The position numbers were made by a program, and so were the translations under genes. A model generated the notes under the pieces. It did no database searches. It was not told where the DNA came from and saw only the letters and a program-made list of their open reading frames with translations. Positions 6,454-40,727 of a DNA stretch of 43,777 nucleotides are shown piece after piece. This DNA is from a bacterium (GTDB taxonomy: Bacteria; JACRDZ01; JAQUKH01): contig JAQUKH010000024.1 of the NCBI GenBank assembly GCA_028719205.1, positions 1 to 43,777 on the forward strand, read 5' to 3'. The first letter of the stretch is position 1. Each line of letters begins with the position of its first letter.

Positions 6454-9400
6454 ATGCGAAAAAAATTTACTTCAGTAATGTTAGTTTTATTTCTAACTCC
6501 TGTTTATACAGTAATATTTATTTCTTCTTTATCAAGCCAAAATACTCCAGATGAATATAAAAAAGGCGAATTGATCGTAAAATTCAAGCCAGAAACAGAT
6601 AATTCGGTGGTACAAAAATCTTTATATCGTAACGCTATGAGTGTCAAAAAATCTTTTAATAATATTCCGGTGAAAATTGTGAAAATAGAATCCGGATTGA
6701 CTGTAGAAAAGGCAATCAAAAACCTTGAAAATGATCCGAATGTGGAATACGCGGAACCTAATTTTATTTTGCACGGTTCAACTGTCGTGCCGAACGATCA
6801 GCAATTTGGTAAATTATGGGGATTAAATAATACAGGGCAAAATGAGGGAATAGCAGACGCGGATATTGATGCCCCTGAAGCCTGGGATATAACTACAGGC
6901 AGCGGCAATGCCGTAGTCGCGGTGATTGACAGCGGTATAGACTATACACATGAGGACCTTAAGAAAAATGTTTGGGCCAACCCGGGAGAAATTGCGGATA
7001 ACGGTATTGATGATGATGGAAACGGCGTAATAGATGATGTCCATGGTTATAACGCGGCAAGAAATAACGGTGATCCGATGGATGATGCTGAACATGGTTC
7101 TCATGTTTCCGGTACTATAGGTTCATCGGGAAATAACGGAATAGGAATTTCAGGGATTAACTGGAAAGTGAAAATCATGGCTTTAAAATTTTTAGAACCT
7201 GTTGCAAATGGAAGCACAGAAGGGTTAACGAGCCATGCGATAGAATGCATAGATTATGTGTTAGATATGAAAAAAAGAGGTATTAATGTCAGGGTTATAA
7301 ATAACAGCTGGGGGAATGACAGCTATTCATTTTCACTTTATGATGCTATCTCAGCCCTGAAAGATGAAGGTATCTTATTTGTCGCGTCAGCGGGGAATGA
7401 CAATGTTGATGTTTCTTCTGACCCTCGTTATCCCGCGAGTTATAATCTGCAAAATATAATTTCAGTGGCTGCCACGGATAACAAAGATCAATTGGCGCAT
7501 TTCTCGAATTATGGATCAGTGGATGTGGATTTGGGAGCACCCGGAGTTGGTATTTTAAGCACTGTACCGGATGACAAATATGCTATATGGGACGGAACAT
7601 CCATGGCGGCGCCTCATGTTTCAGGAGTTGCCGCTTTGTTGTGGGACTTCAGGCCGGAGTTAAGTTATAACGCGATCAAAAGAATTCTATTAACAAGCGG
7701 AGATCCTGTTCCCGGTTTAAATGGGAAAACGGTAACCGGAAAAAGACTGAACGCGTATAATGCTTTGAGATCTCCTGTGCCTCCGACTGAGCCGCCGGTA
7801 GTAAGTATTGGGGATACGCAATATATACAAAATAAAGACATGCCCATATTTTTTGATGGCTCTTCTTCATATGATCCTGACGGAGACATAGTTTCATATG
7901 CATGGGATTTCGGGGATAGTACTAATATCACAGGGAGTGAATCTCAAATATCGCATGTTTACAATTTACCAGGGGAATTTAAGGGAAGTTTGACTGTTAT
8001 GGATGATGAGAACGCTGTTTCGAAGGTTGAATTTAATGTTAAGATCATTGATCATAAACTTGAACCTGCTTACGGATATAATAATACAACCACTATGCTG
8101 ACTGTTACTTCGACAGGCAATGATTTTGATGTCTCCTCTCAAATAAACATTAAAGCCTACAATTCCGGTATTATAGGAAGTATCAATACAACGGGTACTG
8201 GCCGTAGAATTTGGGTATCGGGAAACTACGTGTATGTTGCTCATTTTGACTTAGGATTACAAATTATAGATATAAGTGATCCGGTAAATCCGGTTTTAAA
8301 GGGAAGCTTTGGCTCATCGGGTTTAACGGTTAGAGGGGTTTATGTTTCAGGGAATTATGCGTATCTGGCTTGTTACGATGATGGATTTAAAATAGTGGAT
8401 ATAAGCGATCCAGCCAGCCCCGTTGAGGTGGGTAGTTTAAATCTTCTTAATATCAATGAAGAAGTTTTTGTGTCGGGTAACTACGCATATGTAGGGTATT
8501 TGTGTGGAGTAAAAGTGATAGATATAAGCAATCCTTATTTACCAGCCATAACAGGAAGTATTGATCTCCCCGGTTACGATGTCTGTGGGATATATGTATC
8601 CGGAAATTATGCGTATGCGGCAGTTAATACTTTATCGGCGGGGAGACTTGATATAATAGACATAAGTAATCCGGTAAACCCTGTTCTTACAGGAACTGTC
8701 GGGGTAGGCTCAGGAACCAGTGGAAGCAGTATTTGGAGCGCCGCTCCAAAGGGAGTTTATATATCCGGCGCTTATGCATATTTAGTGCATTCGATGGGAT
8801 TGCAGATAATCGATGTAATTGATCCCGGAAATCCCGCTATAACAGGGGGGATAAACACACCTGGTTCGGCTGAGGACGTGTATGTATCCGGTATTTACGC
8901 ATACATTGCAAATTCTACCGATGGATTACAAATAGTAGACATAAGCAACCCGGTAATGCCGGCTATAAAAGAAAGCGTTGATTTGCCCGGCTATACTAAC
9001 GGAGTTTATATTTCAGGCAATTATGTCTATGTAAGTAAAGGCTATCCCGGCGGATTACAGGTAATTAATAAAGCGAGCATAAATTCTTCATCTGAGCCGA
9101 CAATATTTGTAAATAACAACACCTTAACAAAAATTGTCCCGGCAGGTTTGACTGCGGATAAATACGATATTAAAATTAATGATTATACTTCAGGAAAGTT
9201 GTTATTTGCTGCCGGATTTACAGCTTTAAATCCTGGAGACACACCTCCTGCTCCGCCCGTTATAATATCTTTAGATCCAAATTATGATTCAGGGAAAGCT
9301 CCTTTTAATGTGAATTTTAAGGCAAATGCTTATGACCCTGATGGAACTATAATAAAATGCGAATGGGATTTTGACGGGAATGGTACTTATGATTTGGTTT

Positions 9401-9984
9401 CTTTATCCAATACCGTTTCTAATACTTATACAAAAGCCGGAACTTTTAACGCGAGGGTCAGGGTTACGGATAATGACAGTGTCTCAATTACATCGTATGC
9501 AAGAATTTCCTGTATCCTTAATAAACCTCCTTCAGTATTTTTAACCTCAAACACGGTTTTTGGTGAATTGCCGCTGGCGGTAGATTTTAAAGCTAACGCT
9601 TATGACCCTGATGGGACAATAGTAAAATACGAGTGGGATCTTGATGGAAATGGAATTTATGATTCAACTACTGTTACTAACGTCGTAAGCCATAGTTATA
9701 ATGGCCCTGCTAAATATAATCCTAAAGTAAGAGTGACCGACAATGATGGTGCTGTTACTGTAGCTTCGGCAGTTGTGAAATTTAAAACTAATATCAAAGG
9801 GAATATTGATTGTATTTCTCCCGGTTCGGAAAACAGAGTTGATGGATATGATTTGTACTTATTGAAGAGGGCGTTTGGGTCTAAAACAGGCGATCCCGAT
9901 TGGAAAGCGGCAGCGGATATAAATGATGATGCAATAGTTAATGGTGAGGACCTTATTTTGTTAGCGGCTGATTTCGGCAGGTAA
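6454..9984 (+). CDS. Secreted S8 (subtilisin-like) serine protease with PKD domains, 7 LVIVD repeats and a C-terminal dockerin-like domain
   Basis: Signal peptide; prodomain ..VEYAEPNF; catalytic VAVIDSG, HGSHVSG, GTSMAAPHVSG; PKD motifs (YAWDFGD, EWDFDGNG, EWDLDGNG); YVSGNYAY..GLQIIDISDP repeats; terminal ADINDDAIVNGEDLILLAADFG. Confidence 0.9.
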   Translation: MRKKFTSVMLVLFLTPVYTVIFISSLSSQNTPDEYKKGELIVKFKPETDNSVVQKSLYRNAMSVKKSFNNIPVKIVKIESGLTVEKAIKNLENDPNVEYAEPNFILHGSTVVPNDQQFGKLWGLNNTGQNEGIADADIDAPEAWDITTGSGNAVVAVIDSGIDYTHEDLKKNVWANPGEIADNGIDDDGNGVIDDVHGYNAARNNGDPMDDAEHGSHVSGTIGSSGNNGIGISGINWKVKIMALKFLEPVANGSTEGLTSHAIECIDYVLDMKKRGINVRVINNSWGNDSYSFSLYDAISALKDEGILFVASAGNDNVDVSSDPRYPASYNLQNIISVAATDNKDQLAHFSNYGSVDVDLGAPGVGILSTVPDDKYAIWDGTSMAAPHVSGVAALLWDFRPELSYNAIKRILLTSGDPVPGLNGKTVTGKRLNAYNALRSPVPPTEPPVVSIGDTQYIQNKDMPIFFDGSSSYDPDGDIVSYAWDFGDSTNITGSESQISHVYNLPGEFKGSLTVMDDENAVSKVEFNVKIIDHKLEPAYGYNNTTTMLTVTSTGNDFDVSSQINIKAYNSGIIGSINTTGTGRRIWVSGNYVYVAHFDLGLQIIDISDPVNPVLKGSFGSSGLTVRGVYVSGNYAYLACYDDGFKIVDISDPASPVEVGSLNLLNINEEVFVSGNYAYVGYLCGVKVIDISNPYLPAITGSIDLPGYDVCGIYVSGNYAYAAVNTLSAGRLDIIDISNPVNPVLTGTVGVGSGTSGSSIWSAAPKGVYISGAYAYLVHSMGLQIIDVIDPGNPAITGGINTPGSAEDVYVSGIYAYIANSTDGLQIVDISNPVMPAIKESVDLPGYTNGVYISGNYVYVSKGYPGGLQVINKASINSSSEPTIFVNNNTLTKIVPAGLTADKYDIKINDYTSGKLLFAAGFTALNPGDTPPAPPVIISLDPNYDSGKAPFNVNFKANAYDPDGTIIKCEWDFDGNGTYDLVSLSNTVSNTYTKAGTFNARVRVTDNDSVSITSYARISCILNKPPSVFLTSNTVFGELPLAVDFKANAYDPDGTIVKYEWDLDGNGIYDSTTVTNVVSHSYNGPAKYNPKVRVTDNDGAVTVASAVVKFKTNIKGNIDCISPGSENRVDGYDLYLLKRAFGSKTGDPDWKAAADINDDAIVNGEDLILLAADFGR
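8170..9072 (+). repeat. Seven divergent LVIVD-type repeats (one predicted 7-bladed beta-propeller) inside the S8 gene
   Basis: Seven units of pattern V(Y/W/F)(V/I)SGxY(A/V)Y...G(L/F/V)x(I/V)(I/V)DIS(D/N)P counted in the translation. Confidence 0.8.
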
Positions 9985-9996
9985 GGAGACCGGATA

Positions 9997-10569
9997 ATGA
10001 AAAAAATTAGAAAATTTTTACTGGGAATATTATTTGCGGCTAATTTATTTATCCCCCATGGCTGCAGCTGCGCCGGTAAGGGAAATGATACTACCGGTTC
10101 CAATCCTGTAGTACCAGCTATTTCTTTCAGGGCCTCAGGGGCACCTGCCAATAACTCAGTTTATATTGAGGCTATCTCATCCAATGCCGATGAAATAACT
10201 TTAGGCGTGAAAGTAAAAGGCGGGACTGATGTTTATGGAACGTCTTTGGAAATAGTATATGACCAAGACAAATTGTTTTATGATACCTATTCGGCGGAAG
10301 GGAATTATCTTGGAGTTAGCCCGGGAGATTGTTATGCTAAATTATATCAAAAACAGGGAGTATTGCTTGTCGGAATTTTTAAAACAGGAAATGTCCCGGG
10401 CACTGATGGTGATGGTTTATTGCTAACTCTTAATTTTAAGGCATTAAAAGCACAAGTCAACACCCCGATAGAGTTTAATACGTTACATTGTGTCCTAAAA
10501 TCTTCTAATAAAAATAATGACAATATCTCCGGAACGAATTGGCTTGGCGGAAGTTTAAGTTATGAGTAG
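9997..10569 (+). CDS. Exported (possibly lipoprotein) single cohesin-like domain protein
   Basis: Signal-like N-terminus ending ..PHGCSC (atypical lipobox); ITLGVKVKGGTDVYGTSLEIVYD..L, EGNYLG, GDGLLLTLNFKA..PIEF fit a cohesin beta-sandwich pattern; AAGGAG RBS; 12 nt after the S8 stop. Confidence 0.65.
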   Translation: MKKIRKFLLGILFAANLFIPHGCSCAGKGNDTTGSNPVVPAISFRASGAPANNSVYIEAISSNADEITLGVKVKGGTDVYGTSLEIVYDQDKLFYDTYSAEGNYLGVSPGDCYAKLYQKQGVLLVGIFKTGNVPGTDGDGLLLTLNFKALKAQVNTPIEFNTLHCVLKSSNKNNDNISGTNWLGGSLSYE

Positions 10570-10670
10570 CCTGCCGTAAATTTTGGAAAAATTAAAGAAA
10601 TCTATCCAATCGAACGAAAAATTATGATATCATTATCAAATATTAATTTTATTATTTTACAGGAGGTATT

Positions 10671-13304: not shown

Positions 13305-13305
13305 A

Positions 13306-13348
13306 AAAAGAGTATCCTTTTTTATGGAAAAAAATAGGATACTCTTTT
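13306..13348. terminator. Bidirectional intrinsic terminator between the convergent M16 peptidase and HU genes
   Basis: Perfect 13-bp inverted repeat AAAAGAGTATCCT...AGGATACTCTTTT with A/T tracts at both ends. Confidence 0.8.
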
Positions 13349-13353
13349 AAAAA

Positions 13354-13626
13354 TTAATTTACTGCTTCTTTTAATCCTTTGCCTGCTTTGAAAGAAGGGA
13401 CTTTTCTTGCCGCTATTTTAATACTTGCTCCGGTTTGCGGATTGCGACCTGTTCTTGCTGCTCTTTTGCGAACGTTAAAAGAACCAAACCCTACTAATTG
13501 TACGCTTTCACCTTTAGATAATGCCTTTGTAATAGTTGCGATCACTGCCTCAACTGCCGCGACAGAATCTTTTTTGCTAAGCCCTACGCTGTCAGAAAGT
13601 TTGTTAACGATATCAGCCTTTGTCAT
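13354..13626 (-). CDS. hup: DNA-binding protein HU
   Basis: MTKADIV..; [49 protein letters not shown] 13626 follows AAAGGGGTG. Confidence 0.96.
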
Positions 13627-13692
13627 CTTTGTTTTCACCCCCTTTCTGAAAAAAATAAAATAAGGTGCGTAATGATTGATAAAACCTAAAAA

Positions 13693-13720
13693 ATTTTAGC
13701 ATATTATAAAGAAGTGTCAA
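13693..13720 (-). promoter_or_regulatory. Sigma-70-type promoter for hup
   Basis: Minus strand TTGACA-N16-TAAAAT with TG extension (TGCTAAAAT). Confidence 0.6.
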
Positions 13721-13770
13721 GTAAAAAAAATATTAAATTATTAATAAAAACATACCGGGTATATATTTAT

Positions 13771-13799
13771 TTGACAGAAAAATGAAAGAGGATTATAAT
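13771..13799 (+). promoter_or_regulatory. Consensus sigma-70 promoter for the ilv-leu operon
   Basis: Perfect TTGACA-N17-TATAAT. Confidence 0.8.
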
Positions 13800-13846
13800 T
13801 ATTATCTAATTTGCTGTTATTTATTCAAATAAAAAAAGGTGAAATT

Positions 13847-15505: not shown

Positions 15506-15516
15506 AGGAAGCTAAA

Positions 15517-16635
15517 ATGTTCAAAAATAGAAATTCATTTTTGTCAGGGATATTTTTTTTGATGATCATGTTTTTAAACAGCTGTAACTTTATTGATAAA
15601 AGTTCAGACCCTGTGTTTCCAACTTCAAATAATCCTCCTTCAGTGAGTTTGGCGGCAAATATAGCAACAGGGAATACGCCTCTGTTGGTAAATTTTGCAG
15701 CTACTGTTACAGTTAACAATGGAAGCATAATAAAATATGAATGGGATTTTGATAATAATGGAGTTTATGATAGCACTACAACCAGTAATTTAATAAGTTA
15801 TGCTTATGATACTGCCGGAATATATACTTCCAAAGTTAGAGTAACGGATAATACTGGAACAACAGCTGAAGTTACTGCACAATTTACAGTTGGATATTCC
15901 CTTTCGGTAAGTTTGGCGGCAAATCCTGCATTAGGGGTAGCGCCACTAACGGTAAATTTTACAGCTAATTCTACATATGGCGGAGAAAGCGCGGTAAAAT
16001 ATGAATGGGATTTTGATAATAATGGAGTTTATGATACTACTACAACCGGTAAATCTGTAAGTCATATATATAGTATTGTTGGAATATATACTTCCAAAGT
16101 TAGAGTAACGGATAATGTTGGAGTGACAGCAGAATCTACTGTACAGGTTACGGTTACAACTCCGGTTAATCAAATCAGTACAATTTCTTTTACTCCATCA
16201 GGTATACCTTCAGATAACACGGTATATTTGGAACAAGTTGCGATAAATAATGATGAAATAACATTAGCTGTCAGGGTTAAAGGCGGAACAAATGTATATG
16301 GGGCAGCAATGGAGATAACATATGATAGCAGTAAAATAAACTATATATCTATAAGCCAAGGAAATTATTTAGGTGCGAAAGCAGATACCGCTTTTTATGC
16401 TTCGCTCATTAATGGGCAGAAAGGAATATTGCTGATTGGGATTGATAAAAAAGGAAATGTTCCGGGAACAAATGGGGACGGAACGTTAGTTACTATTGTT
16501 TTCAGGGCGGTAGCAACGCAGACTAATACAGCTATAGGATTTAATATCCAACATAGCGTTTTGAAATCACCAAACGCAGGTAATGCAAATATTCCCGGTA
16601 CATTATGGATCGGCGGGAGTTTGAGTTATAACTAA
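15517..16635 (+). CDS. Lipoprotein with two PKD domains and a C-terminal cohesin-like domain
   Basis: Lipobox FLNS-C; two KYEWDFDNNGVYD...YTSKVRVTDN PKD units 264 bp apart; C-terminal domain clearly paralogous to 9997..10569. Confidence 0.75.
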   Translation: MFKNRNSFLSGIFFLMIMFLNSCNFIDKSSDPVFPTSNNPPSVSLAANIATGNTPLLVNFAATVTVNNGSIIKYEWDFDNNGVYDSTTTSNLISYAYDTAGIYTSKVRVTDNTGTTAEVTAQFTVGYSLSVSLAANPALGVAPLTVNFTANSTYGGESAVKYEWDFDNNGVYDTTTTGKSVSHIYSIVGIYTSKVRVTDNVGVTAESTVQVTVTTPVNQISTISFTPSGIPSDNTVYLEQVAINNDEITLAVRVKGGTNVYGAAMEITYDSSKINYISISQGNYLGAKADTAFYASLINGQKGILLIGIDKKGNVPGTNGDGTLVTIVFRAVATQTNTAIGFNIQHSVLKSPNAGNANIPGTLWIGGSLSYN

Positions 16636-28529: not shown

Positions 28530-29270
28530 TTAAAACCTATGATATAGATCAATGCTGAAATAACCGGAGGATGAAATACTGTTGCTATGCCTGTAACCCA
28601 ATCCAAAAAGAATAGACAAATTTTCTTTTAGTTTCTGTATTTCGAAGATCGGGCCTAAACGGTAAGCTGAATAATCACTATTGCCTTCTCCAATGCCTTC
28701 CATTCCGATAAAATATTTATTGGTAATTTTATTTGATGGTACTAAATATTTAAGTTTACCTCTTCCCCAGAGAGAATGGCCTATTGTGTTGTAATCTCCT
28801 AAAAGGTTTATAATAAGCCTTTCTGACAGGTCTCTGGTATAGTCGGTTTCAAGTATTAGTCCTGTTTTTGGCCCTCGTGTTGAATTACTTTTATCATCAG
28901 GGTGGAAGGAAGTATTTCTTTTAACAATTCCTCCTATTACTGTTAAATATGCGCTGCGATAAAGGCGTGTTTCCCCAATAAACAGTTTTAGTTCAGGTAC
29001 TTTGGCCTTAATAATCTCTGTGCCTGATTCATATTCATAATTTAAATAATCCGCGATGATTTTTGCCGTTAACACCCGTTGATCGTCAATTTTATGGTCA
29101 AGGCCGACCCCTAAATATTCGAATCCCTGATTCTTTGTGTCGGTATACCAGCCTGAATATATATCTACTCCGGTGATGATTTTTTTACTGCCGGCGTTAA
29201 CAGGTGAAATAAAAAATACGGACAAATAAACTAAACAAATAAAAAAAGAATAGAAATATTTTATTTTCAT
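28530..29270 (-). CDS. BcsS-like outer-membrane beta-barrel (putative polysaccharide export pore)
   Basis: Signal peptide; amphipathic strands; YFIGMEG..EGNSDY..YRLG; terminal LYHRF; 3 nt downstream of the GT2 gene. Confidence 0.55.
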   Translation of the reverse strand: MKIKYFYSFFICLVYLSVFFISPVNAGSKKIITGVDIYSGWYTDTKNQGFEYLGVGLDHKIDDQRVLTAKIIADYLNYEYESGTEIIKAKVPELKLFIGETRLYRSAYLTVIGGIVKRNTSFHPDDKSNSTRGPKTGLILETDYTRDLSERLIINLLGDYNTIGHSLWGRGKLKYLVPSNKITNKYFIGMEGIGEGNSDYSAYRLGPIFEIQKLKENLSILFGLGYRHSNSISSSGYFSIDLYHRF

Positions 29271-29273
29271 ATT

Positions 29274-31136
29274 TTAATCCCTTATTCTGTTTGCCATGCT
29301 TAATTTTAGGAATTTAGCCTGTGCAGGGGCTGCCACAAGCATTAGAAACCTTATGATCTTATCCTTATCTGATTCGCTGATATTTTTGAATTCAATTCCG
29401 TTCATATATTTGTTCATATTTTTTGATATCTTAAACAGGCTGGACATTTTTATTTCTCCCAAAGTATTTATGTAAATTCCATCCGGAAGAAAAATTTTGA
29501 GTTTCAAGACCCGGCCTGCCGGCATTGGATCATCTGTAGTTAAAGAAAGGCCATAGGGTGAAATATTTCTCGCGAAACCCGAGTTTTCTTTTTTTATTTC
29601 ACTTAAGCCAACATTTTCATATTGTACATTTATGTCAAATTTACCATCGAAGCGGTATAATTTCCTGAAATCTTTCTTACTCAAAGCGGATAAAGCCATT
29701 GGTACCGTTAAGATAGTGTAAAATATAGCCCAGAATATACTTGCAAGATATGCCCAAAATTGTATCCCGCCCAAATGGAAAATATCAATAACGCCCTTAA
29801 TAATAGCAATACAGCTAAGCATAGATATAGACAGCTGGAGGCTTACTTCGTTCAGATTATTTTCCATTCTGCTCTGTTTGGGAGTAACTATATATTTTTC
29901 TTTTCCAAATATCCCTCTTATCACAGCCTTCATTTGGTTGACAAGTTTAATTATATTATATTGTTCCACTAATATTATTCCTCTAAAGCCGCCCATTGTA
30001 AGGCTCATGCCATAAACACTTACAAAAAAATATGGGACAAAGAAATTTAGAAAAGTTGAAGGGTCGGAGTGTATTGGTATAAATCCGGTATTTAATATTA
30101 TAATGGGTACCAATAAATAAATTAATTTCTGGAATCCGCCAAAATAAGTATACATAGAGGCAAAGTAACACAACCTTTGCGGTATTGATAATCCTTTTGT
30201 TGTCAGAGGATTATTTATCTTCCATACCTGCATCGCGCCTGCTCCCCAGCGGAATCTCTGGATGGCAAATCCGCCTAAAGTTGATGGGGCAATACCCCTG
30301 GCCATAGTCTTATTATAATATACAGAATGCCAGCCTTTCGCGTGTAATCTAAGGGCGGTATGGATATCTTCTGTTATTGTTTCTTCAGCAAAACCTCCGA
30401 TCTCATCTATGGCCTTTCTTCTTATCATAGTTGTACTGCCGCAATAAAATGCCGCGTTCCAGTAATCTTTCCCCGGCTGTATCACAGAATAAAACAGTTC
30501 TTGTTCATGCCATGAATAGCCTTTGCTCCAATTGGTCGTGTGTTGGAAGGAATCTAGGTTGTAAAAATCCTGGGGCATTTGTACCAGAGCGACTTTTTCA
30601 TCGATAAAAAAGCCTATTGTTTCATTAATCAGGGTAGGCAAAGGTATATGATCGGCATCAAGGGTTAATAAAAATTCACCATTTATATGTTTTAAAGCGC
30701 TATTTAGATTTCCCGCCTTAGCGTTTTTTCTTTCAGTTCGTGACATATACACACAATTTAATTTTTCAGCTAAAACTTTTATCTCAGGCCTCCGGCCGTC
30801 GTCAAGAACATAGGTCGTGTGAGGATATTTCAGGTCCATGCATCCCAGCAACGTCATTCTTAAAAGATGCTCGGGTTCGTCGTATGTAGGCACAAGTATA
30901 TCCACGGTTTTGTTTTGCAGCGGTGGAAGAGATTTCCTTTTGGTGGGATTCCATACCATAAAAAAGAAAAGGGTTGTTTCAATAAAACCATGTAACTCGG
31001 CAATTAATAGAAGAAGTGAAAACCACAGGGCATTAGGATTTAAAGTAAAACGAAATCTCCAGATAAGATACCTTACACTGAAAATAACCGACAAGATCAT
31101 TATCAGCCATCGCCAATATTTTTTATAGTCCTCCAT
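29274..31136 (-). CDS. bcsA: Cellulose-synthase-like GT2 (BcsA-like) with C-terminal PilZ domain
   Basis: YLIWRFRFTL; VDILVPTYDE; LDDGRR; AKAGNLN; LDADH; FYCGS; TITEDI; QRFRW; PilZ RKLYR and NISPYG; ATG 31136 preferred over TTG 31160. Confidence 0.85.
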   Translation of the reverse strand: MEDYKKYWRWLIMILSVIFSVRYLIWRFRFTLNPNALWFSLLLLIAELHGFIETTLFFFMVWNPTKRKSLPPLQNKTVDILVPTYDEPEHLLRMTLLGCMDLKYPHTTYVLDDGRRPEIKVLAEKLNCVYMSRTERKNAKAGNLNSALKHINGEFLLTLDADHIPLPTLINETIGFFIDEKVALVQMPQDFYNLDSFQHTTNWSKGYSWHEQELFYSVIQPGKDYWNAAFYCGSTTMIRRKAIDEIGGFAEETITEDIHTALRLHAKGWHSVYYNKTMARGIAPSTLGGFAIQRFRWGAGAMQVWKINNPLTTKGLSIPQRLCYFASMYTYFGGFQKLIYLLVPIIILNTGFIPIHSDPSTFLNFFVPYFFVSVYGMSLTMGGFRGIILVEQYNIIKLVNQMKAVIRGIFGKEKYIVTPKQSRMENNLNEVSLQLSISMLSCIAIIKGVIDIFHLGGIQFWAYLASIFWAIFYTILTVPMALSALSKKDFRKLYRFDGKFDINVQYENVGLSEIKKENSGFARNISPYGLSLTTDDPMPAGRVLKLKIFLPDGIYINTLGEIKMSSLFKISKNMNKYMNGIEFKNISESDKDKIIRFLMLVAAPAQAKFLKLSMANRIRD

Positions 31137-31176
31137 CTTTAAGGATTCCTTAATAAACAAATAAATTTTTACTGTT

Positions 31177-31860
31177 TTATTTTATTAATCTTTTACGTAA
31201 TCCCGCGAAACCGAATAATCCTGAAGCTAAACTGACGAGTAACATAATTGTGCCTGGTTCGGGAGTTTGAACTGTTGATATTCTCCCTTGCAAATGTCCC
31301 CAATCAGAATAATCAGGGCCTGCTGAAGAAACCCCGAAATAAAGGTAATCGTTATAATTAAGAAAAATATTGGTTAGATTATAATTAACAACATCTCCCG
31401 GATTCAGGTAACTTGAGAATAATAAAGTGTCATTTTTTTTAATATAGCTTTGAATATAACCGCTATCAGGATACAGATTATCTATCTTTAACCAGAAAGA
31501 ACCCGTTAAATTATATAAATTATTATAAGGCGATAAAAAGGCAAGGTTTACGTCTTCTGTACCATATTCAGTTCCACATTGCGGCATTGAGGACGGATGC
31601 ATATATATCCATGGTTGATTAACTTTCACGATCATAGGATTCTCAAATGGCTGTTCCGGAGTTAAAAAAGTATGGTTCGCATCAGGTTTTTTAGCTATAG
31701 ACCTATATGTGTTTGTTTCAGGACTATAACCATAAGCATACAATCCATTTTCACCCTGGTAATTGGGGAACTGAGACCAAAGATCAATAGTGAGAGCTCC
31801 TGCGCTTTGCCCACCTGCTAAAATAAAAATTGTACTTAAAAAAAATAATAATTTTTTCAT
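31177..31860 (-). CDS. PEP-CTERM sorting-domain surface protein
   Basis: Signal peptide; C-terminal TPEPGTIMLLVSLASGLFGFAGLRKRLIK (PEP, TM helix, basic tail). Confidence 0.88.
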   Translation of the reverse strand: MKKLLFFLSTIFILAGGQSAGALTIDLWSQFPNYQGENGLYAYGYSPETNTYRSIAKKPDANHTFLTPEQPFENPMIVKVNQPWIYMHPSSMPQCGTEYGTEDVNLAFLSPYNNLYNLTGSFWLKIDNLYPDSGYIQSYIKKNDTLLFSSYLNPGDVVNYNLTNIFLNYNDYLYFGVSSAGPDYSDWGHLQGRISTVQTPEPGTIMLLVSLASGLFGFAGLRKRLIK

Positions 31861-32090: not shown

Positions 32091-33098
32091 ATGGCTATAA
32101 AAATCGCGATTAACGGGTTCGGAAGGATCGGCAGGAATTTCATGAGGATAGCCTCAGATCAAAAAAATTTTGAAATTGTGGCGATAAATGATCTGACGGA
32201 TGCCTCGGTTTTGGCTCATCTCTTAAAATATGATTCAGTTCACAGGATTTTTAACAAGGATGTAAAAGCTCAGGATAATAACATCATTGTTGACGGCCGT
32301 AAAATTAAAGTGATTTCTGAGAAAGATATTAATAAACTGCCATGGAAAGACCTTGGCGCGGATATAGTTATTGAGTCCACAGGCCTTTTTACGGAAAAAG
32401 AAAAAGCGCAGGTTCATTTAACGAACGGCGCGAAAAAGGTAATTATAAGCGCTCCCGCGAAAAATCCGGATATAACAATTGTTTTAGGTGTAAATGAAAA
32501 GACCTATGACAAGTCTAAACATCATATTATTTCAAACGCCTCATGCACCACAAATTGTTTAGCGCCTATCGCTAAAATAATTGATGAGAATTATAAGATC
32601 AAGCACGGGTTCATGCTTACTACCCACTCGTATACTAATGACCAGAGAATTTTGGATCTGCCGCACAAGGACCTTCGCAGGGCGAGAGCCGCGGCGGTTT
32701 CAATGATACCTACTACAACAGGCGCGGCAACCGCGACCGCTTTAGTTCTTCCGCAATTAAAAGGGAAGCTTGATGGTTTGTCGGTAAGAGTTCCCACACC
32801 AAATGTTTCAATGGTGGATTTTGTGACTGAAGTGGAAAAAACTACCACGAAAGAAGAAGTTAACGCGGCATTAAAGAAAGCTACTCAAAATGAATTAAAA
32901 GGAATTCTTGATTTTTGCGAACTGCCTTTGGTTTCTATAGACTTTTTGGATAATCCGCATTCATCGATAGTGGACGCCTTGTCAACAATGGTAATTGATA
33001 AAACTATGATAAAGGTGATCTCCTGGTATGACAACGAATGGGGATATTCCAGCAGGCTGGTAGATTTAGTTAATTATGTTAATAAACAGGGGTTGTAA
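32091..33098 (+). CDS. gap: Glyceraldehyde-3-phosphate dehydrogenase, type I
   Basis: [30 protein letters not shown]. Confidence 0.98.
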
Positions 33099-35047
33099 TG
33101 AATAAATTATCAGTAAGAGACCTGGATGTAAAAGGTAAAAGGATCCTTATCAGGACCGATTTCAATGTGCCGCTTGATAAGAAGGGCGAAATCATTGATA
33201 TTATCAGGATAACAAGTTCCATTCCTACAATAAAAAATGTTATTGACCGCGGCGGCCGGGCCATTTTGATCTCTCATCTGGGAAGGGCGAAGGGTGAGGT
33301 TATTGAAGGCCTTAGAATGAATAAGGTCGCGGAAAAACTGGAAGTGGCGTTAGGCAAAAAAATAAAAAAATTGAATGACTGCATAGGGACTTCTGTTGAA
33401 ATGTCAGTAGCGGGGATGAAAGACGGTGATGTAATTCTTCTGGAAAATGTAAGGTTTTATAATGAGGAAGAGGATAATGACCCTGAATTCGCACAGAAAT
33501 TAGCAAAACTCTGTGATTATTACGTAAATGACGCTTTCAGTGTTTCTCATCGGGCACACGCGTCGGTTGTCGGCGTGACTAAATTTGTTTCAAAGGCAGC
33601 AGCCGGTTTGTTAATGGAAAAGGAAATAAAATATCTGGGACAGGCAGTCCAAAATCCAAAAAGGCCGTTTTTGGTTATTCTTGGCGGAAGCAAAGTTTCA
33701 GATAAAATAGAAATATTTAAACATCTTTTACATAAAGTCGACACGTTTTTGATCGGCGGAGGGATGGCCTACACATTTTTAAAATCTCAGGGGATATTAA
33801 CCGGAGATTCTTTGGTAGAGAAAGACAAACTGGATGTCGCTAATGAGATCCTGGAAAATGTAAAAAAGAATCATAGCAAAATAATTTTGCCTGTAGACCA
33901 TATTATTGCTGATGAATTTTCAAAGACAGCTAACAGCAGGGTCCAGGATGAAAAATCAATACCTGATGGCTGGCGGGGTATGGATATCGGGCCTAAAACA
34001 ATTGAGCTTTTTAAAAAAGAAATTGAAAAAGCAAATACGATCCTTTGGAACGGGCCTGTCGGGGTTTACGAATTACCCCAGTTTAAAAATGGAACGATCG
34101 CGCTCGCGAAACTTTTGGCTGAATCAAAAGCGACAACGATCATAGGAGGCGGGGATTCAGCGGCGGCGATACATGACAGTAATGTAGAAGATAAAATTAC
34201 CCATATTTCCACAGGCGGCGGCGCGTCATTAGAATTTCTTGAAGGAAAATCGCTTCCGGGAATAGAAGCACTCAGCGATATTGAAGGAAGAAAAATATTT
34301 ATTGCCGGGAATTGGAAAATGAATACACTGCAGAAAGACGCGAGAATACTTATAAACGGCATCAAGGAAAAGACAGATGGATTTAAAAATATTGATATAG
34401 CATTTATCCCGCCCTATACTCATCTTTTTTTAATGCAGGATATACTTAAGGATTCAAATATCAAATTTGGGGCTCAAAATATGTATTTTGAAGAAAAGGG
34501 AGCATATACCGGAGAAATATCGCCGTTGATGCTTAAGGATTTAGGCTGTACTTATGTTATAATAGGCCACTCGGAAAGACGGAAATATTTTAATGAGAAC
34601 GATGAGCTTTTAAATAAAAAAATAAAATCCGCTTTGAAACACGGGTTATTTCCGATTTATTGTGTTGGAGAGACTCAGGAAGAAAGGGATAAAAATTTAC
34701 ATCAGAAGGTAGTAGAAAAACAATTAATTAATGGTTTAACCGGAATAACCAGTGATGAAATTAAGAAAATAACAATTGCTTATGAGCCGGTATGGGCGAT
34801 CGGTACCGGTAAAAACGCGACACCTGAGCAAGCGGAAGAAATGCATAAATTTATCAGGAACCGGATTTCAGTGATCTATGATGAGGAAATTTCTTCTAAT
34901 GTCCGTATCCAATACGGGGGAAGTGTAACTTCTGAAAATGTGGCGGATATTCTTAAACAGGAAAACATTGATGGCGCGCTGGTTGGAGGCGCGAGCCTAA
35001 AAATTGATACTTTTTCGGATCTGTTAAAAATTGCAAATAATTTGTAA
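33098..35047 (+). CDS. pgk-tpiA: Phosphoglycerate kinase / triosephosphate isomerase in-frame fusion
   Basis: PGK: RTDFNVPL, YVNDAFS..HRAHAS, STGGGASLEFLEG; continues without a stop into TPI: IAGNWKMN, GHSERR, AYEPVWAIGTG, YGGSV, GALVGGASL. Confidence 0.96.
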   Translation: MNKLSVRDLDVKGKRILIRTDFNVPLDKKGEIIDIIRITSSIPTIKNVIDRGGRAILISHLGRAKGEVIEGLRMNKVAEKLEVALGKKIKKLNDCIGTSVEMSVAGMKDGDVILLENVRFYNEEEDNDPEFAQKLAKLCDYYVNDAFSVSHRAHASVVGVTKFVSKAAAGLLMEKEIKYLGQAVQNPKRPFLVILGGSKVSDKIEIFKHLLHKVDTFLIGGGMAYTFLKSQGILTGDSLVEKDKLDVANEILENVKKNHSKIILPVDHIIADEFSKTANSRVQDEKSIPDGWRGMDIGPKTIELFKKEIEKANTILWNGPVGVYELPQFKNGTIALAKLLAESKATTIIGGGDSAAAIHDSNVEDKITHISTGGGASLEFLEGKSLPGIEALSDIEGRKIFIAGNWKMNTLQKDARILINGIKEKTDGFKNIDIAFIPPYTHLFLMQDILKDSNIKFGAQNMYFEEKGAYTGEISPLMLKDLGCTYVIIGHSERRKYFNENDELLNKKIKSALKHGLFPIYCVGETQEERDKNLHQKVVEKQLINGLTGITSDEIKKITIAYEPVWAIGTGKNATPEQAEEMHKFIRNRISVIYDEEISSNVRIQYGGSVTSENVADILKQENIDGALVGGASLKIDTFSDLLKIANNL

Positions 35048-35059
35048 AGGAGGAGTTTA

Positions 35060-35440: not shown

Positions 35441-35441
35441 T

Positions 35442-37145
35442 ATGAAGAATAAAATAAAATATTTTTCAGCTTTTTTAGCGGTACTGCTTTTATTTTCATG
35501 CGCCAGAAAAGAAAACAAAGTAAAAGCCGGGCCTGATAGCCGGTTTGGCGGTAAAATAGTTATAAGTTCAGTAAGCGATCCCAAATCGTTCAATCCGATC
35601 ATGGCAAAAGAAACGTCAACAACACACGCGATCGGATGGTGTTTTGAAGGGCTTACTGAAACGGATGGGGTAACCACTGAGGTAAAACCGTGCCTGGCTG
35701 AAAGCTGGCAGATCTCGCCTGATGGTTTAGAATGGATTTTTAAACTTCGCAAAGATGTAAAATGGTTTGACGGAAAACAATTTACCGCTGATGATGTAAT
35801 TTTTACATTTGATAAATTAATTTATAATGATGATATTCCTTCCTCAAGCCGTGATATTTTTACGATTGACGGCAAAGAAATAAAAACCGTAAAGATCGAT
35901 GATTTTACAATAAAATTCATTTTATCAAAACCCTTCGCGCCTTTCCTGCGACAGCTTAACCAGGAAATATTGCCTAAACACATCCTGGAAAAATCAGTAC
36001 AGGAAAAAAAGTTCACTTCGACATGGGGTGTAAACTCGAATCCATTGGAGATCATAGGAACAGGCCCGTTTTATCTTAAAGAATATGTTCCAAGCCAGAA
36101 ACTGATCTTAGAAAAAAATCCGTATTACTGGAGGAAAGATAAGGATGGAAAACAATTACCTTATCTGGATCAGCTGGTGATTCTTATCGTGCCGGATCAG
36201 GACGCGGACCTTTTAAAATTCCAGTCAGGTGAAATAGATATTTTATCACCACGCGGACAGGATTTCTCCTTGCTTAAATCGAAAGAAAAAGAAGAAGATT
36301 TTACGCTCTATAACTGCGGGCCTACATTTGGAACCAATTTCCTTGTATTCAATCAAAATCCGGCCGCGGTTAAACACCCGAAGATCGATTGGTTTACAAA
36401 TGTTGATTTCCGCCGGGCCGCAGCGTATCTGATCGATAAAAATTCAATAATAAATAATGTTATGTCGGGGCTGGCATTTCCGCAGAATTCAGCAATGGAA
36501 AAGGCCGCTGTATTTTTCTATAATGATAATGTGAAAAAATATGATTATAATATTCCTAAAGCTAAAGGGATCTTATCGGCCTCGGGTTTTACAGATAAAA
36601 ATAAAGATGGATTTTTAGAGGATAAAAACGGGAATACTGTAGAGTTTACGATACTTACAAACAGTGAGAATAAGGAACGCGAACAGATGGGAAATATTAT
36701 AGCTGATGACCTGCGGAAGGCAGGTATTAAAGTGAATTTTGCTCCGGTTCAGTTTAATACTTTAGTCAGTAAACTTGATAATCCTCCGTTTGACTGGGAT
36801 GCGATCCTTATCGGCCTGACAGGCGGAGTCGAACCTCATAGCGGAATGAATGTCTGGATGTCTTCTGGACAATTGCACATGTGGTATCCAAGGCAAAAGA
36901 AGCCGGCTACAACATGGGAAAAAGAAATAGATGACCTGTTTACCCGCGGGGCAAGCGAGTTAAATGAAGAAAAACGCAGGCAGATCTATTTTCGCTGGCA
37001 GGAGATCGCTGCCGAACAGCTTCCTTTTATCTACACGGTTAATCCCGCCGCTATTTACGCAGTCAGAAACAAATTCGGTAACCTTCACCCCACCGCCTTT
37101 GGAGGCGTAACCCATAATATCTGGGAATTTTACCTGAATAAATAA
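35442..37145 (+). CDS. Peptide/nickel ABC transporter substrate-binding lipoprotein (family 5)
   Basis: Lipobox LFSC; SDPKSFNP; LAESW..SPDG..W.FKLRKDVKW.DG..FTADDV.FT; GTGPF. Confidence 0.93.
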   Translation: MKNKIKYFSAFLAVLLLFSCARKENKVKAGPDSRFGGKIVISSVSDPKSFNPIMAKETSTTHAIGWCFEGLTETDGVTTEVKPCLAESWQISPDGLEWIFKLRKDVKWFDGKQFTADDVIFTFDKLIYNDDIPSSSRDIFTIDGKEIKTVKIDDFTIKFILSKPFAPFLRQLNQEILPKHILEKSVQEKKFTSTWGVNSNPLEIIGTGPFYLKEYVPSQKLILEKNPYYWRKDKDGKQLPYLDQLVILIVPDQDADLLKFQSGEIDILSPRGQDFSLLKSKEKEEDFTLYNCGPTFGTNFLVFNQNPAAVKHPKIDWFTNVDFRRAAAYLIDKNSIINNVMSGLAFPQNSAMEKAAVFFYNDNVKKYDYNIPKAKGILSASGFTDKNKDGFLEDKNGNTVEFTILTNSENKEREQMGNIIADDLRKAGIKVNFAPVQFNTLVSKLDNPPFDWDAILIGLTGGVEPHSGMNVWMSSGQLHMWYPRQKKPATTWEKEIDDLFTRGASELNEEKRRQIYFRWQEIAAEQLPFIYTVNPAAIYAVRNKFGNLHPTAFGGVTHNIWEFYLNK

Positions 37146-37307
37146 TAAAATATTTTCCTCATCGTATCAAAATTCTATTCAAAATTATCATACCTAAAAT
37201 ATTCGTTTACGGTCAAAAAAATTTGGTATATAGAATAATCACGGTTAAATATAAATTTAATATAAAAATTGTAAAATCAATTTAATGCCGGAGGTGTGTG
37301 AAATATT

Positions 37308-40300
37308 ATGAAAATTAAATATGTTCTATTTTTATTTTTGATTTTATCAGTAAAAACTGTTTTTACTGCAGCTCCTGTAATTGAGTCAATATCGCCTGTT
37401 TCAGGTTACAACGATGAATTTACAAACATAACTATCAACGGCCAGAATTTTGATTCAGCCTGCAGGGTATCTATAAGTTCCGGAAGTTTTTATTTAAAAG
37501 GGACATATAATACCCCGGGACGCGCGTATGGCGTATATGTAAATGGGAATTATGCTTATGTTGCGTATGAAACCTCCGGTTTAGAAATAATTGATATCAG
37601 TAATCCGGCAAGTCCGAGTTTAACAGGGACATATAATACGCCGGGAAGAGCTTTAGGAGTATATGTAAATGGGAATTACGCCTATGTTGCGGATGATACT
37701 ACCGGTTTACAGATAATCGATATAAGTGATCCGGCAAACCCGATTTTAAAAGGGACATATAATACGCCGGGAAATGCTATAGGCGTATATGTAAATGGGA
37801 ATTATGCTTATGTAGCGGATTTAGGTTCCGGTTTGCAAATAATCGATATAAGTGATCCGGCTAGTCCAACCTTAAAGGGAACTTATGATACGCCAGGAAA
37901 TGCTATAGGAGTATATGTAAATAATATAAATGCAGATACTACTTACGCGTATGTGGCAGATGATGATTCCGGTTTGAAAATAATTGATGTGAGTGATCCG
38001 GCAAACCCGATTTTAAAAGGGACATATAATACTCCTGGATATGCAGAAGGAGTATATATAAATGGGAATTATGCATATGTAGCGGATTTTGGCTCCGGTT
38101 TAGAAATAATCGATATAAGTAATCCGGCAAGCCCGATTTTAAAGGGGACATATAATACGCCTGGAAATGCTATAGGAGTACATGTAAATGGAAATTATGC
38201 ATATGTAGCGGATTTTAGTTCCGGTTTACAAATAATAGATATAAGTGATCCGGCAAACCCGATTTTAAAAGGGACATATAATACGCCTGGATATTCTGTA
38301 GGAGTATATGTAAATGGGGATTATGCATATGTAGCAGATTTAGATTCCGGTTTACAAATAATCAATATAGGTAATTTATCAAGTTCGAGTTTAAAAGGGA
38401 CATATAATACACCGGGATACGCGGAGGGAGTGTATGTAAATGGGGATTATGCGTATGTAGCGGATTTTGGTTCCGGTTTACAAATAATAGATATAAGTGA
38501 TCCGGCAAACCCGATTTTAAAAGGGACATATAATACGCCTGGATACGCGGAAGGAGTGTATGTAAATGGGGATTATGCGTATGTAGCGGATTATGGTTCC
38601 GGTTTACAAATAATAGATATAAGTGATCCGGCAAATCCGATTTTAAAAGGGACATATAATACACCGGGATATGCGTATGGGGTATATATAAAGGGGAATT
38701 ATGCATATATTGCGGATGGTATTTCCGGTTTACAGATAATAGATATAAGTGATCCGGCAAACCCGATTTTAAAAGGGACATATAATACACCTGGAAATGC
38801 TATAGGAGTATATACGGATGGTGATTATGCATATGTAGCGGATTTTGATTTCGGTTTACAAATAATAGACGTAAGCAATCCGGCAGGCCCGATTTTAAAA
38901 GGAACATATAATACACCGGGGAATGTGTATGCGGTATATATAAAGGGAAATTATGCGTATGCTGCGGATGATACTGCCGGTTTACAAATAATCGATATAA
39001 GTGATCCGGCAAACCCGAGTTTAAAGGGGACATATGATACGCCGGGAAATGCTTCGGGAGTGGATATAAGCGGGAATTATGTATATGTAGCGGATTTTAG
39101 TTCCGGTTTACAAATAATTGATATAAGCAATCCGGAAAATCCAAGTTTAAAAGGAAGCATCGATACTATGGGATATTCTATGAAAGTATATGTAAATGGG
39201 AATTATGTATATATAGCGGATTTTGATTCCGGTTTACAAATAATCCAAAAAATAAGCGCAGGGAGTGAATGTGGAAATATTATATATAATGATTCAACTT
39301 CGATGACCGCGGATGTTTTAACGCGATTATGCCCGGGTAAATATAACATAACAGTGACAAACACAAATGGAGAACAAGGGATTTTATATAATTGTTTTGA
39401 TGTGTTGCAGGGAATAACAGTAAATAACGCGCCAATATTTGATCCGACAGGAAACAAGATAGTAAATGAGTATGAAACACTAAGCTTTACAATAACAGGT
39501 TCTGATCCGGACGCAGATATTGTATTTTATGAGGAATCAAATTTACCGGATGGAGCAAATTTTAATACAAATACTAAAAAATTTACATGGAAACCGAATT
39601 ATTTACAACAAGGCCTATATTATGTGAATTTCGGTATTTATGACGGTGAATTGGCCGGATATGAGACAATAAGTATAACAGTTAACAATATAGATATTCC
39701 GCCAACAGTAACGTTAATTGCCGCTGAAACAACTGGAGTCGCTCCGCTGACAGTGAACTTTACGGCAAACGCGCATGATCCGAATGGAACAATAATAAAT
39801 TATGAGTGGGATCTGGACGGGAATGGGAGTTATGAAACAAGCACAACAGGAAATACACATTCATATACATATAGTACAACTGGAACATATAACGCGAAAG
39901 TGAGGGTAACCGATAATGATAGCGCAGCAGCTATAGATACTGAAACAATAACAGTAAATAATCCGCCTAATCAGCTTCCAACGGTAACCCTGATAGCTGA
40001 TAAAACAACGGGAGTAATCCCGCTGACAGTGAACTTTACGGCAAACGCGCATGATCCGAATGGAACAATAATAAATTATGAGTGGGATCTGGACGGGAAC
40101 GGGAGTTATGAAACAAGCACAACAGGAAATACACATTCATATAAATATAGTACAACTGGAACATATAACGCGAAAGTGAGGGTAACCGATAATGATAGCG
40201 CAGCAGCGATAGATACTGAAACAATAACAGTAAATAATCCGCCTAATCAGCTTCCAACAGTAACACTGATAGCAGGTAAAACAACAGGAGTAAGTCCGCT

Positions 40301-40727
40301 GACAGTGGACTTTACGGCAGATACGTTTGATCCAGACGCAACAATAATAAATTACGAGTGGGATCTGGACGGGAATGGGAGTTATGAAACAAGCACAATA
40401 GAAAACACATATTCATATACATATAATATTGCAGGAACTTACAATACAAAAGTAAGGGTAACAGACAATGACAAGGTAACAGCAATAGATACTAAAACAA
40501 TAACAGTGTCGCGACCGAAGAATAATTTGCCATTAGGTAATATTGACATAAGTTCCCCCGGTTCATCCGACCGTGTTGACGGGCATGATCTATATGTATT
40601 AGGCAAGGCATTCGGGGCTCAGCCCGGGTATTCCAACTGGAATATTTTAGCTGATCTTGATGAGAATAATATCATTGACGGGAATGACCTTATAATATTC
40701 GCAGGGAATTTCGGGAAAAAGAATTAA
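37308..40727 (+). CDS. Secreted modular protein: split IPT/TIG-like domain with 14 LVIVD repeats, Ig-like domain, 3 PKD domains, C-terminal dockerin-like domain
   Basis: Signal peptide; 42-aa repeats LKGTYNTPG..GVYVNGNYAYVAD..SGLQIIDISDPANPI; NLPDGANF....FTWKP Ig; YEWDLDGNG PKD x3; ADLDENNIIDGNDLIIFAGNFG; GGAGGTG RBS. Confidence 0.88.
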   Translation: MKIKYVLFLFLILSVKTVFTAAPVIESISPVSGYNDEFTNITINGQNFDSACRVSISSGSFYLKGTYNTPGRAYGVYVNGNYAYVAYETSGLEIIDISNPASPSLTGTYNTPGRALGVYVNGNYAYVADDTTGLQIIDISDPANPILKGTYNTPGNAIGVYVNGNYAYVADLGSGLQIIDISDPASPTLKGTYDTPGNAIGVYVNNINADTTYAYVADDDSGLKIIDVSDPANPILKGTYNTPGYAEGVYINGNYAYVADFGSGLEIIDISNPASPILKGTYNTPGNAIGVHVNGNYAYVADFSSGLQIIDISDPANPILKGTYNTPGYSVGVYVNGDYAYVADLDSGLQIINIGNLSSSSLKGTYNTPGYAEGVYVNGDYAYVADFGSGLQIIDISDPANPILKGTYNTPGYAEGVYVNGDYAYVADYGSGLQIIDISDPANPILKGTYNTPGYAYGVYIKGNYAYIADGISGLQIIDISDPANPILKGTYNTPGNAIGVYTDGDYAYVADFDFGLQIIDVSNPAGPILKGTYNTPGNVYAVYIKGNYAYAADDTAGLQIIDISDPANPSLKGTYDTPGNASGVDISGNYVYVADFSSGLQIIDISNPENPSLKGSIDTMGYSMKVYVNGNYVYIADFDSGLQIIQKISAGSECGNIIYNDSTSMTADVLTRLCPGKYNITVTNTNGEQGILYNCFDVLQGITVNNAPIFDPTGNKIVNEYETLSFTITGSDPDADIVFYEESNLPDGANFNTNTKKFTWKPNYLQQGLYYVNFGIYDGELAGYETISITVNNIDIPPTVTLIAAETTGVAPLTVNFTANAHDPNGTIINYEWDLDGNGSYETSTTGNTHSYTYSTTGTYNAKVRVTDNDSAAAIDTETITVNNPPNQLPTVTLIADKTTGVIPLTVNFTANAHDPNGTIINYEWDLDGNGSYETSTTGNTHSYKYSTTGTYNAKVRVTDNDSAAAIDTETITVNNPPNQLPTVTLIAGKTTGVSPLTVDFTADTFDPDATIINYEWDLDGNGSYETSTIENTYSYTYNIAGTYNTKVRVTDNDKVTAIDTKTITVSRPKNNLPLGNIDISSPGSSDRVDGHDLYVLGKAFGAQPGYSNWNILADLDENNIIDGNDLIIFAGNFGKKN
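37494..39250 (+). repeat. Tandem array of 14 x ~126-bp LVIVD-coding repeats
   Basis: TTAAAAGGGACATATAATAC recurs at a 126-bp period (e.g. 38391, 38517); unit 4 carries a 5-codon insertion. Confidence 0.92.
39700..40510 (+). repeat. Three tandem 276-bp PKD-coding repeats
   Basis: CCGCTGACAGTG at 39744, 40020 and 40296; units 1 and 2 almost identical at DNA level. Confidence 0.9.

Follow-up and report, generated by a model that had tools for sequence, protein, structure and literature searches.

Dispersed single-cohesin lipoproteins and dockerin-tailed proteins in an uncultured diderm bacterium: a candidate envelope anchoring system

We analysed a stretch of 43,777 nucleotides (the window), contig JAQUKH010000024.1 of the bacterial assembly GCA_028719205.1, here called contig C24 of genome G000 (2.59 Mb, 92.7% complete). 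Four of its genes encode two predicted lipoproteins that each carry a cohesin, coh1 and coh2, and two secreted proteins, an S8 protease and an LVIVD-repeat protein, that each end in a dockerin-like tail (Table 1). An original prediction, made from the window alone, had read these genes as a cohesin–dockerin surface complex that captures, cleaves and imports proteins. The feature is real and that prediction is right at the domain level, but it is over-interpreted at the pathway level. We consider it reasonably probable that the four genes belong to a dispersed, outward-facing envelope anchor in which one dockerin plug fits one cohesin socket. The modules probably clip proteases and adhesin-like proteins to the envelope rather than serve a dedicated protein-feeding pathway. 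The host belongs to a small uncultured diderm phylum; the closest matches of its ilvC, in Nitrospirota and Geobacter, are at most 72% identical and give it no phylum name. The diderm markers BamA, LpxC and LolA, all found in G000, bear out the cell plan that had been proposed.

The domain of about 150 amino acids (aa) shared by the two lipoproteins is a cohesin in both. The motifs on which this had first been recognised sit where they were reported, at 10120-10566 (residues 42-190 of coh1) and 16183-16632 (residues 223-372 of coh2), and over 153 aa the domains share 55% identity (E 2e-50). Against Pfam Cohesin (PF00963) coh1 scores 34.4 bits and coh2 47.4 bits, both over the gathering cut-off of 24.1. 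The fold was assessed on an AlphaFold model of coh1 (predicted local distance difference test, pLDDT, 94.7), to which coh2 is 55% identical. The best structural match of the model is cohesin 6kgc_A (Z 16.4, root mean square deviation 2.1, 134 residues aligned); among 48,161 chains ranks 1-20 were all cohesins and the first non-cohesin had a Z of 10.1. The top Z values tie between type I and type II cohesins, and the two types are not separated by this search. The lipobox of coh2 is clear (FLNS-C23), as had been noted, and coh1 also has one, of atypical form, with its Cys at 23 or 25. Pfam places two PKD domains in coh2, and so the picture of predicted lipid-anchored cohesins with and without a two-PKD stalk holds. 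The coh1 gene starts 12 bp downstream of the S8 protease gene, and coh2 lies between ilvD and ilvN.

The S8 protein consists of a signal peptide, a prodomain, the S8 domain (PF00082, 181 bits), a PKD domain, an LVIVD propeller, two further PKD domains and the C-terminal dockerin. Its catalytic motifs are intact and give D159, H214, N315 and S383, the Asp-His-Ser triad with the oxyanion Asn, and beyond the hydrophobic N-terminus it has no later transmembrane segment. The LVIVD gene is located between oppA and oppB and encodes 14 LVIVD repeats, which would make two propellers, followed by an Ig-like domain, three PKD domains and the dockerin. The cargo had been described as a protease and a binding propeller, a division that holds in part, in that an LVIVD propeller is present in the S8 protein as well, with 6 Pfam repeats and 41-46% identity to the LVIVD protein. 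The two tails, of about 62 aa, are 49% identical, and both score over 100 bits against a profile built from these tails. With Pfam Dockerin_1 (PF00404, cut-off 22.9) the S8 tail scored 20.2 or 25.5 in two scans and the LVIVD tail was unlisted; in the scan that gave 25.5, 3 of the 12 dockerin tails of G000 were over the cut-off. A profile of 28 tails matched solved structures best at 2y3n_B (E 1e-13), followed by type II X-dockerins. The S8 tail was modelled with two helices (19-29 and 52-61), and with this model Foldseek returned dockerin-containing chains at ranks 1-17, the best at E 0.07 and none at or below 0.001. Loop 2 of the tails is a canonical calcium loop. By these profiles and models the tails are dockerin homologs with an atypical first calcium loop; the proposed homology thus stands, whereas the first loop is not the canonical 12-residue form and the Pfam scores are marginal.

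Table 1. Features of the window (contig C24), the four module genes and their tails first.
Feature	Position	Strand	Basis or remark
S8 subtilase, 1176 aa, secreted	6454..9984	+	Pfam, hydrophobic N-terminus
Dockerin-like tail of S8 protein, residues 1115-1176	9796..9981	+	Pfam, profile, model
coh1, predicted single-cohesin lipoprotein without stalk, 190 aa	9997..10569	+	cohesin domain 10117-10566
coh2, predicted single-cohesin lipoprotein with two-PKD stalk, 372 aa	15517..16635	+	cohesin domain 16180-16632
LVIVD protein, 1139 aa, secreted	37308..40727	+	Pfam
Dockerin-like tail of LVIVD protein, residues 1076-1139	40533..40724	+	tail-built profile, 104.7 bits
HU/IHF gene	13354-13638	-	
PEP-CTERM protein, cellulose-synthase-like GT2 with PilZ, BcsS-like gene	28530-31860	-	
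Phosphoglycerate kinase-triosephosphate isomerase fusion	33098-35047		fused in G001 too, split in G002

Iterated cohesin and dockerin profiles were run over 8,002 open reading frames (ORFs) of G000. They identify 12 proteins with a dockerin and 13 with a cohesin, never more than one module per protein and none with both, and hence confinement of the system to the four window genes was wrong. There is no multi-cohesin scaffoldin in G000, all 13 cohesin proteins being single-cohesin. Inspection by eye places a Cys at the end of a signal peptide, behind a hydrophobic stretch, in 11 of them. The remaining two comprise a C-terminal fusion to a secretin and its stand-alone neighbour, 82% identical to the secretin cohesin. 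For comparison we used five phylum relatives (G001-G005), among which G001 and G002 are congeners of G000. Across G000 and these relatives the lipoprotein cohesins occur with 0, 1 or 2 PKD spacers, and one PKD is present in two G002 cohesin proteins; stalked cohesins therefore recur, and the "two heights" seen in the window are a repeated design. The cargo of the 12 dockerin proteins comprises three proteases (S8; M6, with 174.4 bits against a cut-off of 110.8; and a CLCA-like HExxH/VWA protein under its cut-off), five propeller-only proteins (LVIVD, RCC1, delta-60 and two BNR-like, one of the latter with a truncated tail), three others (an FN3 protein, a PKD protein and one of no family assignment) and one bare dockerin. 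No catalytic glycoside hydrolase (GH) family passes the Pfam cut-off in any of the 12. The cargo set is not dominated by carbohydrate-active enzymes, and the absence of a recognisable glycosidase, proposed from the window, extends to the genome. The FN3 cargo scores over the cut-off of a non-catalytic RGI-lyase beta-sheet model, whose match is thus not enzymatic; a single propeller cargo has a sub-cut-off match to a glycosylhydrolase model.

Dockerin and cohesin genes are commonly neighbours. Seven of the 12 dockerin genes have a cohesin gene as their same-strand neighbour, in either order and overlapping or at most 50 bp apart, one of these adjacencies being inferred across a 26-nt contig overlap (C46/C10). 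In 100,000 random placements among approximately 2,350 genes the maximum was three. The profile search covered 31 genomes, G000 included, and the cohesin profile matched 10 and the dockerin profile 11. Both modules are present in four of the five phylum relatives and neither in G005, which is 78% complete. Among 17 dockerin genes fetched from six other genomes, nine adjoin a cohesin gene; two of the non-adjacent ones are cut by contig ends, and the matches in G016, G017, G027 and G030 lie outside this sample. In the lineage of G026 a cohesin and a dockerin occur within 8 kb in 7 of 14 genomes. Pfam analysis of 14 of the 17 relatives' dockerin proteins gave two peptidases (M36/M4 and M23), the rest being propellers and Ig-like stalks, with no catalytic GH over cut-off. 

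Some individual loci deserve description. A bare secreted dockerin of approximately 110-130 aa lies directly 5′ of a cohesin lipoprotein gene in G000 (L009:4484-8827, contig C3), where a DUF5060/CBM4-9 protein follows, and this pair is kept in G000, G001 and G003 (L009, L023, L031). In contig C17 (L010:6498-7646) the dockerin of a propeller cargo ends within the second calcium loop with helix 1 intact, the helix that makes up most of the interface modelled below. The 344-aa dockerin protein of no family assignment, in C7 (L001:6069-8551) has upstream of it a collagen-like protein with a peptidase S74 chaperone domain. Just past the delta-60 cargo gene in C10 the second half of a dockerin coding sequence is repeated (L002:1545-1634). 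A lone cohesin lipoprotein gene in C8 (L012:8381-8962) sits after a ruvA-like end and directly before a ruvB-like gene (both named by eye). Lastly, one G001 protein (L029:511-3999, contig C138) has a cohesin at its N-terminus and, in addition, a GH2-like TIM barrel and PKD domains.

The predicted pairing was checked with ESMFold2 on coh1, the S8 dockerin and two Ca2+. The complex reached an ipSAE of 0.79 against 0.15 for the best control; at least 96% of contacts were shared between runs, and the partners had a pLDDT of 92 or more. In calibration, 116 of 157 solved pairs attained the ipSAE mark, as did 2 of 215 mismatched ones, counts that are only roughly valid here. On the dockerin side, helix 1 and the SPGS segment in loop 1 form the modelled interface. 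On this model the S8 dockerin plausibly binds coh1. Since cohesin–dockerin complexes have already been solved, passing these controls shows likeness, and maybe memory of solved pairs, rather than binding. Across eight close dockerin paralogs the modelled interface is 81% conserved compared with 51% elsewhere. The cohesin face is less conserved (41%, against 55% for the rest, which includes the buried core).

We propose the following sequence of events. Cargo with an N-terminal signal peptide and a C-terminal dockerin, features present in these proteins, would be exported by Sec. The single-cohesin lipoproteins, which have a lipobox in a genome that encodes LolA, would acquire a lipid anchor in a membrane, probably the outer membrane. 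The dockerin would then bind Ca2+, and one cargo would clip to one cohesin through the first helix, as in the model. The pair would face outward, the cargo having exited via type II-like secretion machinery; this is the weakest step. The dockerin may thus act as a general anchoring tag for adhesin-like propeller and Ig proteins and a few proteases, with genes that would move mostly as two-gene cassettes into housekeeping operons and turn over between species.

Several observations weigh against this proposal. With a Lol pathway present, lipoproteins face the periplasm by default. In the expanded dockerin family, loop 1 either exceeds the canonical length by 3-5 residues or has no Asp at positions 1 and 3. 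Five of the 12 dockerin genes and 4 of the 11 lipoprotein cohesin genes have no adjacent partner. Partner divergence does not correlate significantly among the six close adjacent pairs of G000, where rho is 0.33, a value that 128 of 720 permutations attain, and for the interface columns alone 0.12 (228 of 720). We rejected fine-scale partner co-evolution; a correlation over 16 pairs (rho 0.71, 0 of 2000 permutations) tracks the deep splits and common ancestry. Out of 50 named genomes searched, three have a cohesin match, all secretin-fused or secretin-adjacent, and none of the three matches this dockerin profile. Moreover, in G003 the gene for an M16 peptidase is one gene away from a dockerin–cohesin pair, which favours the original prediction.

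The most serious competitor, still a minority possibility in our view, is that binding takes place in the periplasm, where the cohesin lipoproteins would hold or escort the cargo and the dockerin might be a targeting tag for the secretin cohesin. The secretin that ends in a cohesin (C10:11690-13651) does lie with its neighbour cohesin in a type II-like cluster of GspE, PilM, GspM and pseudopilin genes (L002:7590-16082). None of the dockerin proteins carries a Por tail of the type IX secretion system (T9SS), the three TIGR04183 matches in G000 all being on other proteins. Cargo with neither a T9SS tail nor a late transmembrane segment needs a route across the outer membrane. Hand-off to the secretin is weakened, however, because the secretin cohesins form a separate clade (support 99/97) with a different face, their identity to the lipoprotein cohesins being 13-14% in the modelled interface and 23-25% elsewhere, and because the secretin-linked cohesins of the three named genomes occur without a dockerin match, so that such a cohesin need not have such a partner. 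Loss of pairing, with the tail a mere calcium-binding cap and the cohesin-like lipoproteins in some other role, appears very improbable to us. It would suit the non-canonical first loop, the weak Pfam and Foldseek scores of the tail, the truncated tail in C17 and several gene-end remnants (below), but gene adjacency far above chance that is seen again in other lineages, the greater conservation of the interface dockerin residues and a complex model that passes its controls all speak against it. An ordinary cellulosome-like polysaccharide system is hardly credible. The G001 protein with a cohesin and a GH2-like barrel and the CBM4/9 and DUF5060 protein after the C3 pair point that way, and BNR-type propellers could hide hydrolases, given the sub-cut-off glycosylhydrolase match. 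Set against this, there is no scaffoldin, 13 of 13 cohesin proteins being single-cohesin, and catalytic GHs over cut-off number 0 of 12 dockerin proteins in G000 and 0 of the 14 scanned from relatives.

A dedicated capture-cleave-import pathway, in which proteins captured by a propeller would be cut by the S8 and M16 peptidases and taken up as peptides through Opp, we regard as quite improbable, although its cohesin and dockerin parts stand. The intact S8 catalytic motifs fit it, as do the three proteases among the 12 cargoes, the M36/M4 and M23 peptidases added by relatives, the G003 arrangement, and the proposal of proteolytic cohesin–dockerin complexes for other diderms (PMC6461901, PMC8542988). 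Nevertheless, 9 of the 12 cargo proteins are not proteases. The location of the LVIVD gene in a peptide ABC operon had been taken as a sign of function, yet both congeners lack a dockerin gene between oppA and oppB: the two are adjacent in G002, as in G005, and in G001 an unrelated gene of 233 aa stands between them. In the stretches fetched from G003 and G004, oppB is preceded by other genes and there is no dockerin gene. Likewise, the M16 gene next to the window protease and cohesin had suggested a functional link, but M16 is present in all five phylum relatives, including G005, which has no module match; it has other upstream genes in G001 and lies at a contig end in G002. Other cassettes of G000 adjoin murB, pyrR, ruvB and ffh-like genes (names partly by eye), and coh2 sits in an amino-acid biosynthesis operon. 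The ilvD and ilvN genes are contiguous in G001, separated by an unrelated gene in G003, and in G002 separated by an 852-aa dockerin cargo and not by coh2. The GC content at third codon positions is 0.24-0.32 in the four window module genes compared with 0.36-0.49 in six flanking genes. The four genes look like variable insertions, and since they behave as such, their neighbours tell little about function.

Returning to the envelope anchor, we asked how partners might be matched. The tightest modelled contact is between cohesin residue 88 and dockerin residue 26, and these positions sort the six close adjacent G000 pairs perfectly, as Phe/Lys (two pairs), Asp/small (three) and Ser/Asp (one). 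Such sorting arises in 12 of 720 permutations, and for the three-class match this column pair is unique among 460 interface column pairs. Because we defined these classes with the data already in view and the pairs share ancestry, this is a lead only. The two close G002 pairs show Gly/Gly and Ser/Ser at these positions, which argues against a strict code, as do the non-significant correlation of overall partner divergence in the six G000 pairs and the highly conserved dockerin face, which favours cross-binding. In the window, the S8 tail bears Lys where the model sets the dockerin against cohesin residue 88, while Asp88 of coh2 and Gly26 of the LVIVD dockerin fit the Asp/small class. Of 28 other dockerins, the nearest to the LVIVD tail is that of the G002 cargo between ilvD and ilvN (76%; 63% over 165 aa of PKD and tail), and that G002 contig also carries what is left of a deleted coh2-like gene, with 87% DNA identity over 62 bp. 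These sequences suggest that coh2 and the LVIVD-type tail were once a linked unit. That a dockerin cargo fills the G002 slot where the window has coh2 is a hint that this cargo and coh2 are cognate. For the window protease the likeliest socket is coh1; for the LVIVD protein, coh2 with its stalk or a further member of the same socket class is the more likely partner.

A bolder version of the anchor is a swappable surface-display kit, with genes shuffled via repeated gene ends and an integron, partners set largely by cohesin 88 and dockerin 26, the LVIVD protein on coh2 21 kb away, and a tag that is perhaps first read by the secretin cohesin. We find this version doubtful. A divergent cohesin lipoprotein gene (C35:1647-2282, minus strand) does lie inside an integron array next to an IS110 element (L013:1545-8248), with IntI at 6908-8248 (428 bits, cut-off 265) and attC-like hairpins flanking the cohesin gene (z -5.1 and -4.5). 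BLAST with the two attC-like sites gave matches in contigs C12, C15, C21, C30 and C43. The window contig contained no match to them and no dockerin or cohesin remnant, and mobilisation of the window genes by the integron or by repeat elements was therefore rejected. About eight remnants of dockerin or cohesin gene ends lie among housekeeping, toxin-antitoxin-like and ATPase genes in the G002 ilv region (L042:405-8439, contig C148), of which three are weak matches (E 0.005-0.05), and a single remnant is present in G000. These G002 gene-end remnants are possibly an assembly artefact. The same G002 locus contains a 55-aa deleted cohesin gene and GC-rich inserts in the ilv operon that resemble repetitive extragenic palindromic (REP) elements.

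Non-cellulosomal cohesin–dockerin pairs are already established, and proteolytic systems have been proposed in print but are unproven. In G000, the cohesin profile matches solved structures of the same fold with an E of 1e-5 (3l8q, 1qzn). The best sequence matches of the modules are the type II pair of (Pseudo)Bacteroides cellulosolvens (2y3n) and these ScaB cohesins of Acetivibrio cellulolyticus. In contrast to those organisms, G000 has no scaffoldin or cellulase with these modules, the predicted anchor is a diderm lipoprotein and the first calcium loop is altered. OlpA and OlpC of Clostridium thermocellum are anchored by SLH domains. In these proteins (3ul4, 4dh2), as in ClcC and ClcD of Cellulosilyticum lentocellum, one cohesin likewise holds one dockerin protein; ClcC and ClcD have consecutive locus tags and form a complex (PMC13487519). 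Both examples are monoderm and cellulase-centred, whereas here there are about 12 lipoprotein cassettes with propellers and proteases. The planctosome of freshwater Planctomycetes is a proposed non-cellulosomal cohesin–dockerin display of peptidases on a diderm; it has a 2,210-aa anchor with lamin-tail and P-domains and a cohesin–dockerin adaptor (PMC6461901). Our system differs in that no protein carries both modules, and thus there is no adaptor, and in that its sockets are short lipoproteins. Ca. Stygibacter (Cloacimonadota), another uncultured diderm, is reported to have a dockerin at the C-terminus of an S8 peptidase, a multi-cohesin scaffoldin of 3,755 aa that contains carbohydrate-binding modules, and GH18 and GH57 cargo (PMC8542988). 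It shares the S8-dockerin, but its scaffoldin and GH cargo have no counterpart in G000. In anaerobic methanotrophic (ANME) archaea and syntrophic sulfate reducers, non-cellulosomal modules vary between close relatives and are proposed to serve attachment or adhesion; there, multi-cohesin and S-layer fusions occur, and the accessible text describes no lipoprotein single-cohesin cassettes (PMC9012536, PMC10553843). Archaeal cohesin–dockerin pairs are reported to bind, and a structure from Archaeoglobus fulgidus exists (PDB 2xdh). Further work concerns Saccharophagus (PMC2386152), a cellulosome survey (PMC11557425) and dockerin-type giant proteins (10.1101/2023.11.21.568195). In the literature covered, with subscription papers and the ANME and sulfate-reducer supplements beyond its scope, we found no dispersed single-cohesin lipoprotein cassettes in a diderm, and no paper that joins a cohesin domain, a secretin and type II secretion. 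A scan of named genomes for relatives of the cohesin as a single protein also found none, and no stretch of the alignments is sufficiently conserved to serve as a scan query.

What is distinctive here is an expanded, fast-changing set of cassettes whose specificity rule can be tested. Should binding and surface exposure prove true, the cellulosome connector would serve in diderms as a general anchoring tag with a lipoprotein socket, and cohesin–dockerin anchoring would stand beside covalent and secretion-tail anchors. Moreover, about 12 paralogous pairs in one small genome would make a compact test set for the origin of specificity, starting with one testable residue pair, and could yield orthogonal pairs for display engineering.

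The remainder of the window offers some minor observations. A scan for promoters and terminators gave 39 promoters compared with 32 ± 5.6 in shuffles, which is near the shuffle level; a perfect TTGACA-17-TATAAT match lies at 13771-13799, before ilvD. A 94-aa ORF at 13379 on the plus strand was rejected as a gene, being the shadow of the HU/IHF gene on the opposite strand. The genes at 28530-31860 make up a small exopolysaccharide cluster and may represent a second anchoring route.

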